Shown here in pieces: positions 29,750 to 43,971 of a stretch of DNA of 64,000 nt. A program made the position numbers and the translations under genes. The DNA is from Eledone cirrhosa (Eukaryota): the NCBI GenBank assembly GCA_964016885.1, contig CAXHJY010001721.1, positions 5,190 through 69,189 on the forward strand, written 5' to 3'. Position 1 is the first letter of the stretch. Every line of letters starts with the position of its first letter. Below the pieces are notes generated by a model. That model was not told the DNA's origin and searched no databases. It worked only from the letters and a program-made list of their open reading frames with translations.

Positions 29750-32515
29750 TACATATGAAGCAACTACAGACAGTAATATGTGTCACATATCGGCCGCCCG
29801 ATGCCCCCAGTCATGAGGGGAAATTTGAGGATAGCCTAAGTAGGATAGAAGAGGTCCTTGACAAACTGGACCAGGGTCTCAACATCCTACTGCTGGGAGA
29901 CTTCAACCTACCAAAGGTCAAATGGCCTGAGGGCCACCTCCTCCCTGGAATGACGTCAATAGAACAGAGACAGACGGAATCCCTGCTGGCCCTCACACAC
30001 AGGCTGTTCATGAAGCAAGCAATACTCCTCCCAACAAGAGGCGAAAATGTCCTGGACCTCTGTTTTACAAACAACGAAGTGCTCATCCACAATGTAAAGG
30101 TGACACCAACAATTCTCTCGGATCATAACTTAGTAGAGCTAATGATATGTGGTCCAAGAGAACCAACAGAGACAAAACCACCAAGAAGCTCCGGGACGTT
30201 ATCCAACCTTAACTTCTACAAGGCTAACTGGAAAAAGATTAAGAGTGAAATCCGGAAGCAAACATGGAGTGAAAACACCGCCACACAAGACACTAACACA
30301 CAATTTCAACACTTCATGACAACGATACACACCATATGCAAAAAGTGTGTCCCGGAGAAAGAGGCAAACAGACACAAAAATCTTATTCCCAGAGATAGGA
30401 AAATCCTTATGAGACGTAGAACTAAACTCTCAAACCAGTTGAATAGTCAACAAAACAAAAACAAGAAGGAATCCTATTTGAAACGTGCACTACTTGACAC
30501 CGAGATTGCACTCAAAGTTTCACATGAGAATGAGAGGGCAAAGAAAGAGAACAGGGCCATAGAAAACATTAAAACAAACCCTAAGGCCTTCTTTAAATTT
30601 GCAAAAGAAACTGCCTCAGTACACTGCAAGATTGGGCCACACTTCCACACGGACGGTTCACTAACCGAAAATCCCCAAGAGATATGTGAAATACTGAACG
30701 AACAGTACAAAAGTGTCTTCACATGTCCACTGAGGCACATGCAAATAACGAAGCCAGAGGAGTTCTTTGATGCCACAACACTACATCAAGAAATGGCAAC
30801 CATCAACCACATAGACATAACAGAGGAGGTTATGGTGTACGCCATTGATGAAATTAGAACAGACTCGGCTGCTGGACCTGATGGATTCCCAGCAGTTCTC
30901 CTAAAAATATGTAAGCGGGCCTTAACAACTCCACTGAAGATGCTCTTCAGAAGCTCCTTGGCTAGCGGTGTACTACCCAGGGAGCTGAAAGAAGGCACAA
31001 TATGCCCTATCCATAAAGGAGGTAGTAGAGCGGAGGCCAAGAACTATAGGCCAGTCTCCCTGACGTCGCATATCAGTAAGGTCATGGAGCGAGTCGTCAG
31101 AAAGAAACTAATCACTTTCCTCGAAGAAAATGACCGCCTGACTAGCACGCAACATGGCTTCCGCCCAGGAAGAAGCTGCCTTACACAGCTGCTACATCAC
31201 TACGACTGGGTACTGAGACAACTACTAGACAGCTCACATGTGGACGTGATATATCTTGACTTTGCGAAGGCCTTTGACAAGGTCGAACACGGAATGATAT
31301 GTCACAAACTACACGGACTCGGCATAACTGGAAAAGTAGGTGAGTGGCTGCATGGCTTCCTAAGGGACAGAAGCCAGGCAGTCGCAGCAAATGGGGCCCT
31401 CTCGAGGGAGACACCGATGACAAGTGGGGTGCCCCAGGGGACAGTCCTGGGACCACTACTGTTTTTGGTGGCTCTCTCGGACATGCCCTCTGTGGTGCAT
31501 GCAACAACATCCCTCACTAGCTATGCTGATGACACTAAGGTAGCACAGGCAATCAAAAACCCGACTGACGCTGCCCTTTTACAGCAGGATCTGGATGCCA
31601 TATACAGATGGGCGGAAGAAAACAACATGCAGTTTAATGCTGGGAAATTCCAAGCCCTACAATACAAACCTGCAAACACAAACACAAATATAGTGGAACA
31701 CAGCTACACAGGACCAGGAGGGACCGATATCCCCGTGTCAAAATCGATACGAGACCTGGGCATAGACATGAGCGATGATGCATCTTTTTCTTCACACATC
31801 ATGAAAGTGGCGACAACATGTAGACGACTCGCTGGCTGGATCTTGAGGACTTTCCGGACAAGAGATCGAGACACCATGTTGACATTGTGGAGGACTTTTG
31901 TCCTAAGCCGCCTGGACTACTGCTCCCAGTTGTGGTCACCCCATAGTGTCAAACTAACCACGGAGCTTGAGGCAATCCAGCGAAGCTACACCAAGAGGAT
32001 TGCCAAGATGAGGGAGACAAGCTACTGGGAGAGGCTAAAGGAACTGAACCTCTACTCCTTGGAGCGAAGACGGGAGAGATACGCAGTGATCTACATGTGG
32101 AAAATCCTGGAGGGACTAGCGCCAAACTTTGGCATTGGGAGCTGGACCAACCGTCGAACAGGACGTCACTGTGTGGTGCCAAAGGTCCCGTCTTCCACAT
32201 CTAGAATAAGGAGCAGGTATTGCAATAGCCTGGGATTCAAGGGCCCTCAACTCTTCAACAGGCTGCCGAGGCATCTAAGAGACTTGCATGACGTGGAGGT
32301 GGATGTCTTTAAGAAACATGTCGACACCTTTTTATCCAGGATCCCGGATGAGCCCACAGCAAGACACGAGGGAAACCTAAGGGCAGCAGCAACAAACTCC
32401 CTCCTGCACCAGTGGCCAACCTATACAGGCTGGAGATAAAATGTGTAGCAACAAGGGCGGTGCCCCAGCATGGCCTCAGCCGGATGGCTGAAACAGGTAA
32501 AAGAGTAAAAGAGTA
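29750..32515 (+). mobile_element. CR1-group LINE, family 1, ending in (GTAAAAGA)2 at (TA)n
   Basis: ORF2, short 3' UTR and tandem tail. Confidence 0.92.
29755..32439 (+). CDS. CR1-group LINE ORF2 (APE endonuclease, 5'-truncated, + RT), family 1
   Basis: YRPP, GDFNLP, LDL, SDH; [38 protein letters not shown]; uninterrupted 894 aa. Confidence 0.95.
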
Positions 32516-33841: not shown

Positions 33842-34870
33842 TACGAAGGAGCCATGGAAAAGTATAAGACCCTCATAGAACTGGACATGAAAGGAATTTG
33901 CCCACTATACAGGAGCAAATCATGGAATAGCTTAGATAGGGCTAGACATAAGATAGGGAAGGCCACATCAGGGTACGACAACCAGAGATATCAGAGTGTC
34001 ATGTTTGTGGACGCCACCCCTGGAGGGAAATTAGCTAACCAGTGTAGAAAGGCCCTGAGAAAGACCCACTTAAAAATAAAGGTGGTAGAAAAGCCAGGAA
34101 CCACCATAAAATCCCTGATCAGCAAAACCTTACCCTATGCTAAGTCAAATTGATGCGCGACGCCGCGCAAGCACACGCAGCGAACTGCGAACGGCGCTCC
34201 CGGCATCTGACGCGTTGTCGGTCTCAGTCTAATATTTGCGCCGCGACCAATGCGAAGGCCGACCGTGTCGACGCGATCTGTTGGGACCGCGCGGAAAGAC
34301 GGAACGACGACAGCGACGAACGCTGAGCGCGTTTGTAACCCGACTCCCGGGTGCGACCTGCGATCGCGGCCTCACCGCGAGGAGAGTGGATAACTGTGGC
34401 AATTCTAGAGATAATACATTCAACTGAGGCCGCGATCGCAGGTCGCACCCGGGAGTCGGGTTACAAACGCGCTCAGCGTTCGTCGCTGTTGTCGTTCCGT
34501 CTTCCCGCGCGGTCCTAACAGATCGCGTCGACACGGTCGGCCTTCGCATTGGTCGCGGCGCAAATATTAGACTGAGACCGACGACGCGTCAGATGCCGTC
34601 AGCGCCGTTCGCAGTTCGCTGCGTGCGGTTGCGCGGCGTCGCGCATCAATTCGACTTAGCATAAAAATGTTATGAACAGTTCTTTGATTCTTATATTTCA
34701 TATAACTTCTCTGTAAATCATCTGATGTTTTTACATTGAGCTACTTAACTTACTGGTAATAAGGTAGTAATATATTACTGTCTACAACTATTTAGGGTTT
34801 GTATAAAAAAATATATATAACTGCAAAAGGTTTTTGTATTTACATAACCATAAATAGTATAATTAATACT
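33842..34870 (+). mobile_element. Deleted PLE-like remnant: RT thumb/linker-like ORF 33854-34153 plus pseudo-LTR end 34664-34870
   Basis: PLYRSKSW..SVMFVDATPGGKLA..KVVEKPG resembles PLE thumb/linker as recalled; 34664-34870 is a diverged homologue of 8332-8522. Confidence 0.6.
34138..34661. mobile_element. GC/CpG-rich foldback or MITE: 237-bp TIRs, 50-bp spacer, apparent TA target duplication
   Basis: TA|TGCTAAGTC...GACTTAGCA|TA; arms 34138-34374 and 34425-34661 near-perfectly complementary. Confidence 0.85.
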
Positions 34871-34879
34871 ATATCTATA

Positions 34880-34938
<59 letters not shown>

Positions 34939-34939
34939 C

Positions 34940-34971
<32 letters not shown>

Positions 34972-34997
34972 GATATATATATGTATATATATATATC

Positions 34998-35120
<123 letters not shown>

Positions 35121-35121
35121 C

Positions 35122-35156
<35 letters not shown>

Positions 35157-35160
35157 GTAT

Positions 35161-35189
<29 letters not shown>

Positions 35190-35193
<4 letters not shown>

Positions 35194-36846
35194 GACATAG
35201 AATATTCGAAAATATTCTGTATGTTTATAATAAACATTTTGAAGACCTAATCGCTATAGAATAGAATACGTCACGTATTACAATTAGATTCTCGATAAAA
35301 GCAAGGGAAGTAATCTACGCGTTTCATTCTCGTAAGAAATCATCAGGACTACATATCCAGTGCTTTTATCGAGAATGACACAGCTAGAGACTTATAGAAT
35401 ACTTAGCTGTGTACAGGAACTGGTTTGAAAGAGCGGTTGCCGGTCCGGCAGAAATTAGAAATTGGAATAAATGCTCTGAAATAGCGATATATATGTGAAT
35501 ATAGACATAGAATATTCGAAAATATTCTGTATGTTTATTTTCGAATATTCTATGTCTATATTCACATATATATCGCTATTTCAGAGCATTTATTCCAATT
35601 TCTAATTTCTGCCGGACCGGCAACCGCTCTTTCAAACCAGTTCCTGTACACAGCTAAGTATTCTATAAGTCTCTAGCTGTGTCATTCTCGATAAAAGCAC
35701 TGGATATGTAGTCCTGATGATTTCTTACGAGAATGAAACGCGTAGATTACTTCCCTTGCTTTTATCGAGAATCTAATTGTAATACGTGACGTATTCTATT
35801 CTATAGCGATTAGGTCTTCAAAATGTTTATTATAAACATACAGAATATTTTCGAATATTCTATGTCTATATTCACATATATATCGCTATTTCAGAGCATT
35901 TATTCCAATTTCTAATTTCTGCCGGACCGGCAACCGCTCTTTCAAACCAGTTCCTGTACACAGCTAAGTATTCTATAAGTCTCTAGCTGTGTCATTCTCG
36001 ATAAAAGCACTGGATATGTAGTCCTGATGATTTCTTACGAGAATGAAACGCGTAGATTACTTCCCTTGCTTTTATCGAGAATCTAATTGTAATACGTGAC
36101 GTATTCTATTCTATAGCGATTAGGTCTTCAAAATGTTTATTATAAACATACAGAATATTTTCGAATATTCTATGTCTATATTCACATATATATCGCTATT
36201 TCAGAGCATTTATTCCAATTTCTAATTTCTGCCGGACCGGCAACCGCTCTTTCAAACCAGTTCCTGTACACAGCTAAGTATTCTATAAGTCTCTAGCTGT
36301 GTCATTCTCGATAAAAGCACTGGATATGTAGTCCTGATGATTTCTTACGAGAATGAAACGCGTAGATTACTTCCCTTGCTTTTATCGAGAATCTAATTGT
36401 AATACGTGACGTATTCTATTCTATAGCGATTAGGTCTTCAAAATGTTTATTATAAACATACAGAATATTTTCGAATATTCTATGTCTATATTCACATATA
36501 TATCGCTATTTCAGAGCATTTATTCCAATTTCTAATTTCTGCCGGACCGGCAACCGCTCTTTCAAACCAGTTCCTGTACACAGCTAAGTATTCTATAAGT
36601 CTCTAGCTGTGTCATTCTCGATAAAAGCACTGGATATGTAGTCCTGATGATTTCTTACGAGAATGAAACGCGTAGATTACTTCCCTTGCTTTTATCGAGA
36701 ATCTAATTGTAATACGTGACGTATTCTATTCTATAGCGATTAGGTCTTCAAAATGTTTATTATAAACATACAGAATATTTTCGAATATTCTATGTCTATA
36801 TTCACATATATATCGCTATTTCAGAGCATTTATTCCAATTTCTAAT
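35190..36846 (+). mobile_element. Retrozyme-like tandem array, family J: 300-bp unit x ~4.4 plus inverted arm 35190-35538
   Basis: Lines repeat exactly every 300 nt; one HHR per unit; flanked by (TA)n. Confidence 0.92.
35708..35750 (+). ncRNA. Minimal type I HHR, family J; repeated at 36008, 36308, 36608 (+) and 35310-35352 (-)
   Basis: GTAGTC-CTGATGA-tTTCTtacgAGAAt-GAAA-CGCG-TA-GATTAC; stem I extended by ATTCTCGATAAAAGCA/TGCTTTTATCGAGAAT. Confidence 0.88.
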
Positions 36847-36851
36847 ATATA

Positions 36852-36932
<81 letters not shown>

Positions 36933-37087
36933 GTAAATATATATATCTATATATATGCAAAGTTTTATTTAAATTGTTGGGTTAACAACGAGTAAGTATT
37001 TATAACTGATATAAAAGCACTCAACAAGTATTTGGAGTATATTTACGATATTAAATAAATGGAAACTATATTTATAAAACCATATTT

Positions 37088-41659: not shown

Positions 41660-43971
41660 CTTAGGGAGAAGTGTTTAGACGGGGTCCGTATTTGTTAATA
41701 AAGTAAGATTCCTTGCTGATGCGCTGGGTGTGGGTGGCATTATCTTTAAATTTGTAGAGGGGAAAGATTCTGAAGTTGGGATGATTTTGGGCGGCACAGG
41801 TATCAATGTGTTCACTCAGTGGTATTTTCCTGTATTCCCGTATTTTAATTTAGGATCTATGGACAGTCATGCGTTGGCAGAGGCTGTTTTTGGTCTCTCT
41901 TTGGTCTGTATTGTTCTCGACAACCTAAGCAAGTTAATACATATATTAGATTTTCCGATGCACATGTGAAATTGTGTTTTACTATAAAACGTTGTCTTTC
42001 TTTGAAATAGAATTCCGAACCCTCTATTAGGTTGATGCAAATGCCACAGTTGGGTCTATCGCATTTTTTTACTGTGGGTTTCATTGTTGTGGTTGGCAGT
42101 ACTTTGGCATGTGTTAGGATGTTTTTCATTGACTTAGATTGTCTTTTGCTCTTTATGATATCGTGTGTTCGTAGGATTTGGTTCATTCTATGGTCCTTTT
42201 TCAACACAGGGATGTTCTGGAGGATGGTGTCAAAGGCCTCATTGTTGAGGGGTTGTGTGTGGAGATGTATGGAAGAGCTTTTAGTTTCGGTTGATTTACT
42301 TTAGGGTGTCTAAGGTCCTGGGTACTGAGTTTTAGGGCACGTTGGATTCCATTGTCAATTAGTGATGCAGGGTAGTCCTTGCCTATGAGTGTGTCCTTTA
42401 GTTCTTGTAGCCGTAAGTAGCAGGTGTTTTTATTGGAGACTATAGTACAGATTCTCTTGGCTAAATTGTAGGGAATATTAATTTTAACGTGTCTAGGGTG
42501 GAAAGAGTTGAAAGGAAGATATTGCTTGGAGTCTGTGGGCTTGTAGTATATGTCTGTTTCTATTTTTTTGTTATGGATCTTAATGAGGATGTCGAGGAAG
42601 GGGAGTTGTTGATGGCTGTATTCCATCGTGAAGTTAATATTCGTGTTGAGCCCATTTATAAGGGTGTGAAATTCTTTAAGTTTCTCGATGTTTTCGTGCC
42701 AAAGGATGAAGCAGTCATCTAGATATCGCTTCCAGTTCCTTTCTATGTGTAAGTGGAGAGTGTTTCCAAATTTGTTTAGGACTTTAGTGTAGAGGGTGAT
42801 TTCCAGGTATCCCATGACTAGGTTGGCATAAGTGGGGGCTGTTTTCGTTCCCATAGCGGTCCCAGATTTCTGCCTGTAGGGTTTGTTATTGAAAACGAAG
42901 TAATTGTTCTCCAAGATAAATTTGAGTCCCTCTATCACGAATTCTTTTTTGATGCGTTGTGGGAGTTCATTGTGGTAATTATCCAGCCAGAATTGGATAG
43001 CTTCTATTCCTAGGTTGTGGGGGATGTTGGAGTATAGGTTGACTACACGAACGTCACTAGTAGGGTTTGTTCAGGAAGTGGCATATTAGGGAGGTGATTG
43101 AGCATATCTAGGTCGTCCCTTATATAGCTTTTGATGTGTTTGAGAAGGGTATCAATGAAGTTGCTAACGCGGTGGGTTTCGCAAGCGGGGCCTGCTATTA
43201 TAGGTCTTAATTTGAGATCATTGGGTGCGGGGAAATTGATGACTATGTCTGTGGCTTCCTTGCATGCCTTACTTATTAATTCGCTTTTATGTACTTTAGG
43301 GATACCGTAGAAAAGGCTGGATTTACTTGTGAAGTCTGTGATGAAGCTGAATTCCTTGTTAGTGAGTCCTTCTTTGTATTGGTTGATCAGAGTTTTTAGG
43401 TTTCTCATAATTTTCTGTTGATTGTAGTGTTCAGCCTTTTCGTAGTATGTTTCGTTTTCCAAAGTGGAGAGCGCTAAGTTGATATAGAATTCTGTCTCCA
43501 TTAGGACTACTGTACTCCCTTTATCAGCCTCTTTAATTGTAATGGTTCTGTCGGTTTTTAATCTATTTAATTCTTCCCATTCTTCCTTGTTGAGGTTTGG
43601 CTTGTGTTTTTGTCTGTGCAAGTGTTGGTAAGGGAAGTTTGTGATGTGTTCACAGAATTCGTCCAGGATTTTATTTCTACCTTTTGATGGGGTGTAATTG
43701 CTTCTATTTCTGGCTAATGATTCATCCTCATTGTACTGGTCGAATAGTTGTTCACTGAGTCGTAACTTTCTACAGAAGTCTGTGATGTCTTCCTTCATTT
43801 CATAGTAGTTAGGAGGTATAGTGGGATCGGTGTGAATTTAAGACCTTTGGAGAGTAAGTTGATAAGGTTGGGTGTTGGTTCTGCACTAGCAAGATTGATA
43901 ATTTGTATTACTATCGGTTTCTCCTCCCTGTCTTGTGTTATTTTGTTTGCCTGTATCTGTGTGCTGTGTCT
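41660..43971 (-). pseudogene. PLE RT + Cys-rich linker + GIY-YIG, several frameshifts
   Basis: IINL..LLSKGLKFTP; ADKG; FYGIPKVHK; LRPII; GTAMGTKTAPTYANL; RYLDD; LPFLD; YYKPT; CDRPNCGIC; CASENLIYVLTCLGC. Confidence 0.92.

Follow-up and report, generated by a model that had tools for sequence, protein, structure and literature searches.

The window, a stretch of 64,000 nucleotides of genomic DNA from Eledone cirrhosa, contains two divergent arms that are built from copies of a 310-nt unit and lie inside a (TA)n microsatellite. The direct arm contains 4.23 copies that are 100% identical to each other, and a 350-nt inverted arm, again 100% identical to the unit, is joined to it through a 3-nt overlap; in total there were 0 mismatches across the 1,661 matched bases of array and inverted arm. 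The features of the locus are given below, with unit phases counted from position 35536 as phase 1.

34870..35188, no strand: (TA)n microsatellite, left half of the target
35189..35538, minus strand: inverted arm, 350 nt; outer end of the "short" class at phase 26, inner end at phase 297
35316..35346, minus strand: copy of the hammerhead core within the inverted arm
35536..35538, no strand: overlap of 3 nt (microhomology) joining the arms
35536..36846, plus strand: direct arm, 4.23 x 310-nt units; outer end of the "long" class at phase 71 (family mode 64)
35564..35599, plus strand: place within the unit of both family-wide end sites (short, phases 29/38, in an internal AT run; long, phase 64)
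35684..35704, plus strand: distal helix I, 5' strand (16-bp helix 35684-35699, 2x2 loop, 3-bp helix 35702-35704), recurring every 310 nt
35705..35713, plus strand: loop 1 (3 nt opposite a lone U, 35751) and the proximal helix I of 6 bp, 5' strand
35714..35744, plus strand: type I hammerhead core (CUGAUGA, helix II with U-U base and 6-nt loop, GAAA, palindromic helix III)
35745..35772, plus strand: helix I, 3' strand (proximal 35745-35750, distal 35752-35772)
36847..36956, no strand: (TA)n microsatellite, right half of the target

An earlier note on this DNA had described a 300-bp period and about 4.4 apparently identical units with an inverted arm. The identity and the inverted arm hold, whereas the period is 310 nt, exact in the direct array (996/996 positions match at 310, compared with 282/1006 at 300), and the count is 4.23. 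The very recent insertion that the note had proposed is supported by the lack of mismatches and by the low divergence within arrays across the family. No stretch free of stop codons exceeds 59 codons in the looped unit, and the GC content is about 0.3. We found no LTR, PBS or PPT in the unit (PBS and PPT being judged by eye), and no ORF, such as the RT + GIY-YIG ORF of autonomous PLEs, either in the unit or between the arms at the 20 loci scanned for ORFs; at the 64 loci added later the arrays consist of unit sequence only, bar short junction inserts. By its sequence features the repeat belongs to a known class, the non-LTR retrozymes, and these features support the retrozyme identity suggested previously. 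A separate element, a GC-rich and near-perfect hairpin of ~528 nt (34136-34663) with arms that are ~91% complementary and almost spacerless, lies 200 nt to the left of the TA tract; it is probably of the fold-back or MITE-like kind.

The family to which the locus belongs has more than 1,000 insertions. A 27-nt marker of the unit occurs 16,564 times in the 3.0-Gb genome, which is a minimum for the number of units and amounts to ~5 Mb of repeat, and 217 of these markers carry the loop variant seen in the window; unit length at other loci is 308-311 nt, and the longest array observed extends over ~15 kb. Genome-wide there are 1,046 junctions of long ends and 1,245 of short ends with (TA)n, while the reversed controls gave 0. 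We examined 104 stretches besides the window; haplotypes were analysed in 88 of them, those in which an arm held two full units or more. Thirty-four haplotypes were distinguished among these 88 loci, the majority haplotype being common to both arms in 54 of the 56 informative loci (54/57 before removal of L147, which holds two loci). The contig that carries the window (C1748) is small and unplaced, as might be expected if one unit had been expanded and a chimeric inverted arm attached during assembly. We give this explanation next to no credence, since more than 1,000 loci follow the same grammar with locus-specific haplotypes and differing junction phases, and in an independent run the unit reaches a summed depth of ~2-6 x 10^5, the variants being the same. 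Assembly expansion of a single unit, which the earlier note had considered, is refuted at the family level by the 16,564 exact markers, by the locus-specific haplotypes and by the recurrence of the same variants at high depth in the contigs of that run.

The unit is present in 20 runs under 17 organism labels (16 studies), none of them on record as RNA, which speaks neither for nor against expression. The run with the high depth, X1, has the same loop variants as the assembly. Runs X4, X8 and X16 contain the unit together with an adjacent unrelated repeat, at 10^-3 to 10^-5 of the depth in X1; the comparison included 4 of the 20 runs, covering 3 of the 16 labels besides A. Horizontal transfer is disfavoured because the low-depth runs also carry the neighbouring unrelated repeat (3 of the 16 other labels examined), and the evidence favours host DNA carry-over or thinly sampled relatives as the better explanation of the occurrences under other labels.

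The ribozyme and its extended helix I

Each unit contains one hammerhead core with a palindromic ACGCGT helix III, as had been noted, and the core and its three helices are present in all 5 copies at the locus. From the hammerhead consensus, cleavage is predicted after position 35744 and also after 36054, 36364 and 36674. Helix I has 6 bp and continues through a 3x1 loop, 3 bp and a 2x2 loop into a 16-bp helix; helix II has 4 positions and helix III has 2 bp. The perfect 16-bp helix claimed to extend stem I was confirmed, and the 101-nt ribozyme region folds with z = -5.36, none of 200 shuffles folding as well. Rfam gave no match at the gathering score in the whole window, and scans by E-value returned no hammerhead at E up to 10 for the window haplotype and none for a sister family described below either; a sister haplotype matches Hammerhead_HH9 at E = 0.042, below the gathering score. 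Identification of the hammerhead thus rests on motif and fold.

Canonical metazoan type I hammerheads have a helix I of 6 bp, a helix II of 4 bp and a helix III of 1-2 bp with a palindromic loop, and the minimal type of PLEs has a helix II of 7-8 bp, a helix I of 4-5 bp, an ill-defined loop 1 and a helix III that is absent or reduced (PMC4209133). The geometry observed here is canonical metazoan type I, not the "minimal HHR" of the earlier note; a minimal PLE-type hammerhead is ruled out by the 4 positions of helix II and by a helix I of 6 bp with a defined 3x1 loop and a distal helix. The base of helix II is U-U in the window and A-U in 7 of the 34 haplotypes. The axolotl ribozyme HHR_Amex2 also has U-U at this place; its monomer cleaves weakly and its dimer well (PMC7229834).

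The genome also contains a diverged sister family, with units of 317-321 nt and 1,897 first-look candidates, whose ribozyme has the same geometry in other letters. Four of the 6 proximal pairs of helix I are changed on both sides between the two families, as are 8 of the 21 distal positions, and all 11 distal positions with an altered 5' base still pair in the sister family, an outcome that 2 of 100,000 shuffles reproduced (using the majority letters from 33 copies, in what is a single two-family comparison). Such compensatory change supports the functional role that had been proposed for the extended helix I. A contact between loop 1 and loop 2 is known from type I hammerheads (PMC6155905). 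Here the first U and the last A of loop 2 are invariant in 34/34 haplotypes, with variable inner bases. The sister family retains the 3x1 loop, with its single U in 32 of 33 copies, while pairing closes the 2x2 loop beside the 16-bp helix. Because the sister family pairs the 2x2 loop yet keeps the 3x1, the 3x1 loop by the 6-bp stem is the likely candidate for the tertiary contact with loop II that the earlier note had suggested for an internal loop.

Substitutions within the main family also bear on function. Those that are inherited, that is fixed within an array, kept pairing at 6/6 paired positions and never struck the core. Among 21 private substitutions, which may include assembly errors, pairing was kept in 3, while 16 break a pair and 2 fall in the core (Fisher p = 3e-4 for the comparison with inherited changes). 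The sparing of the ribozyme by inherited substitutions indicates that it is under purifying selection.

Ends, arms and centre junctions across the family

After pieces of two very long arrays had been dropped and stretches with two loci split, 102 loci were scored for their structure. Ninety-one were two-armed, and all 91 were divergent, with the RNA 3' ends facing outward. At 89 of the 90 loci with both ends visible there was one short and one long end, the remaining one being unclassified; this figure is partly circular because 54 of the loci were picked as long and short pairs. Loci from the DNA search alone were not selected by their ends. In this set 17 of 21 had an inverted copy, and the two-armed loci paired a short with a long end in 16/16 cases (of the 21), with TA at all outer ends. 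Similarly, on C1 0-218 Mb (the first 81 long and 100 short junctions) all 54 divergent end pairs were long plus short; no long-long or short-short pair was found there, though these were equally detectable. Nine of the 11 one-armed loci start at the short site.

Short ends fall mostly at phase 29 or 38, within the internal AT run, and 80 long ends fall at phase 64. The distance from short to long is 26-35 nt and corresponds to a PLE-type "tail", which only one of the two ends carries. The earlier note had the array start and end at different phases of the unit; the outer ends (phases 26 and 71 here) are not at arbitrary phases, being drawn from two fixed sites across the family. Together with the inverted arm, these sites are the family's general pattern and the main clue to the mechanism. 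Target duplications are unreadable because the insertions sit inside (TA)n. A search for empty sites among the retrieved loci gave 5 rows from 3 loci, of which one was usable, a paralogous empty-like site with a pre-existing TA tract of ~22 nt.

The inner ends of the arms are spread across the unit. Only 3 of 182 lie within 5 nt of the cleavage site, compared with 6.5 expected, and their distribution is not fully even (chi-square p = 0.01); haplotype SNPs can also halt the end caller. The arms average 1.6 kb at the long end and 1.3 kb at the short end, and 92-93% exceed one unit. Among the 91 centre junctions, 43 have an overlap of 1-4 nt, 10 are blunt, 28 contain inserts and 10 have longer overlaps. 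Just 2 junction types recur among the 91 loci, and one of these is the unit's own 16-bp inverted repeat. The inner phases of paired arms are unrelated (10/91 within 20 nt, 12 expected), and we accordingly rejected the window's inversion point as a family-wide fold-back site.

Most private variants are not common to both arms, and long homogeneous arrays occur in many different haplotypes. There are nevertheless mosaics: both arms of L067 read H1, H1, H2 inward from the outer ends, L117 switches variant within one arm, and L059 has the same private variant in both arms. In three long arrays private variants recur at 7, 17 and ~27 units. Two very long ones, L130+L166 (C2:186.67-186.68 Mb) and L065+L152 (C1:97.46-97.48 Mb), contain ~41 and ~48 units, with recurrence at 17 and ~27 units, which may stem from duplication of a higher order, a multimer template or an assembly error. 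For L037 we abandoned the idea that its arms stem from different templates, as only single units differ. To account for the mosaics and multi-unit recurrences one must invoke multimer templates, a switch of template, unequal exchange at a later time or errors in the assembly.

These data bear on single priming followed by fold-back, in which the cDNA would snap back, the second arm would be copied from DNA and the tail would result from resolution by the endonuclease, an origin of the tail that has been suggested for PLEs (PMC8557442). Fold-back would fit the microhomology at the centre as well as L059 and L067. It is nonetheless improbable in our judgement, since the inner phases of the arms are unrelated, one arm of L117 is partly another variant and most private variants are confined to one arm.

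Candidate helper, template and mechanism

The reading that we hold with good confidence is that this non-autonomous, non-coding 310-nt non-LTR retrozyme is mobilised in trans by an endonuclease-bearing PLE. The window itself contains the following RT frames.

8681-11040, plus strand, and 5081-5647, minus strand: Hydra-like PLE RT/endonuclease frames with an asparagine-rich insert, recognised by motif and not detected by Pfam
29710-32439 (909 aa) and 53697-56833 (514 + 549 aa): non-LTR retrotransposon-type endonuclease-RT frames
41857-45278, minus strand; 46480, minus strand; 47017, plus strand: frameshifted Neptune-like PLE with minimal-type hammerhead motifs nearby, in opposite orientations

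The clade names Neptune-like and Hydra-like follow from a comparison of motifs with published PLE clades (PMC8557442), not from a tree. The young Neptune-like family has an upstream 455-aa ORF and an intact 784-aa RT + GIY-YIG frame, with 36,637 first-look candidates and many intact copies at ~98% identity; its members occupy (TA)n tracts, their 3' copies are inverted, and a tail of 34-39 nt starts from an internal AT run. The Hydra-like family (62,247 first-look candidates) has intact 830-aa copies elsewhere in the genome and a long 3' region without a hammerhead motif. A third PLE family (L206-L208) has asparagine-rich open frames of up to 1217 aa and a minimal hammerhead, and its two TA-joined ends, seen at one locus each, are ~60 nt apart, beyond the usual tail. 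Since no unit-like terminal repeat was found at the 3' ends of any of the three families (8, 3 and 3 loci), we propose the helper at the level of the class.

Spread at the DNA level, through extrachromosomal DNA circles and recombination in (TA)n, or by a non-PLE retrotransposon, would make the hammerhead a passenger. The higher-order repeats in long arrays speak for DNA-level turnover. As an account of the family this is very unlikely, because it has to contend with two fixed ends in strict short/long coupling, with an autonomous PLE of the same layout in this genome and with selection on RNA structure both within the family and between families.

The target, the two fixed and coupled ends, the divergent arms, the sharing of haplotypes, the microhomology joins and the selection on the ribozyme are observed; an RNA intermediate, a PLE enzyme and priming on two strands are inferred. 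Under PLE mobilisation, arrays would be transcribed and the hammerhead would cut the RNA to monomers, which would probably be ligated into circles. The PLE protein would then nick both strands of the (TA)n target, and reverse transcription would be primed at an internal site by each 3' end, at phase ~29-38 in one case and at ~64 in the other. The number of units copied into each cDNA would vary, with one RNA variant serving for both, as the shared haplotypes suggest, and copying would proceed either around a circle or along a long multimer. Joining of the two cDNA 3' ends through 0-4 nt of microhomology or short inserts would yield the divergent palindromic array, and later unequal exchange or template switching may remodel some of the long arrays.

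The form of the template is the least certain part. The earlier note had proposed rolling reverse transcription of a circle, which is plausible and fits the few inner ends at the cleavage site, but certain arrays point to multimer templates or to turnover at the DNA level. Given mobilisation by a PLE, we regard a circle as the probable template and a linear multimer as the less probable one. The absence of an inner-end pile-up at any RNA 5' end, the long homogeneous arrays in many haplotypes and the selection for cleavage speak for a circle; a pure monomer circle does not explain L067, the switch within one arm of L117 or the recurrences at 7, 17 and ~27 units. The most specific form of our reading is offered tentatively, at somewhat under an even chance: a PLE enzyme, probably a dimer, would begin reverse transcription twice, in a coupled manner, at points 26-35 nt apart on a single circular ribozyme RNA, once from each strand of a cut (TA)n tract, and both cDNAs would roll around the circle and then be sealed head to head. 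The same machinery could instead copy a long linear multimer transcript, with no circle and with a hammerhead that is partly active or acts elsewhere. We consider this possible though rather unlikely. It would accommodate the mirrored mosaic of L067, the one-arm switch of L117, the private variant in both arms of L059 and the multi-unit periodicities, and for the anole PLE the dominant in vitro substrate was uncleaved RNA (PMC11167929). It sits poorly with inner ends that are not clustered at a start or at the cleavage site, with the scarcity of recurring junction types, with purifying selection on the ribozyme and with long homogeneous arrays in so many haplotypes.

Comparison with known systems and related repeats

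Like published metazoan non-LTR retrozymes, the family has a non-coding tandem unit of 150-450 bp with GC under 50% and one type I hammerhead per unit, lacks LTR, PBS and PPT, and co-occurs with PLEs (PMC7229834, PMC7761336, bioRxiv 10.64898/2026.07.22.740005). The main texts of these papers describe head-to-tail arrays only and report no divergent two-arm arrays, fixed paired ends or (TA)n targeting; the present family has two divergent arms, fixed paired ends and (TA)n targets. Circular RNA has been demonstrated for published metazoan retrozymes, whereas the present family is known from DNA. Published animal retrozyme constructs often fail to cleave (1/9, bioRxiv 10.64898/2026.07.22.740005). 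The retrozyme papers propose PLE helpers from co-occurrence and terminal-repeat phylogeny, and in the parts of these sources that deal with it the mechanism is left open (PMC7229834, PMC7761336, bioRxiv 10.64898/2026.07.22.740005).

An inverted truncated copy and a 30-40 nt tail at one end are the hallmark of PLE insertion (PMC8557442, PMC3846280), and the origin of the tandem and inverted structures and of the tail is stated to be undefined (PMC8557442). The family shares with endonuclease-bearing PLEs (Penelope/Poseidon, Neptune, Naiad, Hydra) the 5'-truncated inverted copy, the tail at one end and microhomology junctions (PMC8557442, PMC3846280, PMC11167929), along with (TA)n targeting, described for several PLE clades, and a hammerhead, which PLEs carry in the terminal repeat. 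Its tail of 26-35 nt overlaps the published range. It differs in having no ORF, in that both arms are multimers of a short unit, and in its canonical ribozyme with a long helix I in place of a minimal one. The purified anole PLE cleaves AT-rich DNA on both strands, and two internal RT starts define the tail; no strand difference in start was reported for it in vitro (PMC11167929), whereas the present family strictly combines one end of each kind. The non-autonomous Chlamys PLEs (such as MRC1) are likewise non-coding, moved by PLEs, often multicopy in head-to-tail order and found in microsatellite targets (PMC8557442, PMC9977147). As described there, they differ in occurring in green algae, in lacking a canonical hammerhead and in having 3' similarity to a known autonomous partner, no such partner being found here among the three PLE families examined.

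In the main texts of the open-licence literature we found no description of two-armed, tailed retrozyme insertions. What appears to be new is the full PLE integration footprint, with strict pairing of ends, at more than 1,000 young retrozyme sites. In L1 twin priming both target strands prime reverse transcription, and inverted and direct segments are joined by microhomology, with the second priming at a variable internal site; the second start here is fixed, 26-35 nt from the first. The PLE footprint is carried here by a pure ribozyme repeat, which points to the class of enzyme responsible for spreading repeats of this type, and the strict rule of one short and one long end is a constraint absent from published in vitro work. 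Because a 310-nt RNA with two mapped starts, a defined target and intact candidate helper proteins share one genome, the questions of retrozyme mobilisation and of the PLE tail are testable in a single in vitro reaction. If the coupled-start reading is true, the more than 1,000 insertions would be a natural record linking ribozyme circles to PLE integration, and the PLE tail would arise from strictly paired, non-interchangeable start sites. Long perfect palindromes, ~5 Mb of them, lie in microsatellites and may in addition be of consequence by giving rise to double-stranded RNA and instability.

Several related repeats were noted in the course of this analysis. The sister family (L122:8194-8602; L173-L202) is older, with a 5-bp helix III and a continuous 20-bp distal helix, and its ends are of the same short and long classes, in (TA)n; no attached PLE ORF was seen in the flanks of 30 of its loci. 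A third hammerhead element (L126:7430-8300; L123:1400-1540) has a helix II resembling that of the main family, with its U-U base, and is found in an inverted arrangement in (TA)n, often beside a Neptune-like element. Within the window, a 448-bp tandem at 27162-28160 (2.2 copies, 99% identical) carries a minimal-type hammerhead motif with palindromic helix III and is possibly a second retrozyme or a PLE terminal repeat. An identical hammerhead-like motif is present at 24047 and 26850, and the two occurrences, 2.8 kb apart, probably delimit a tandem or terminal repeat.
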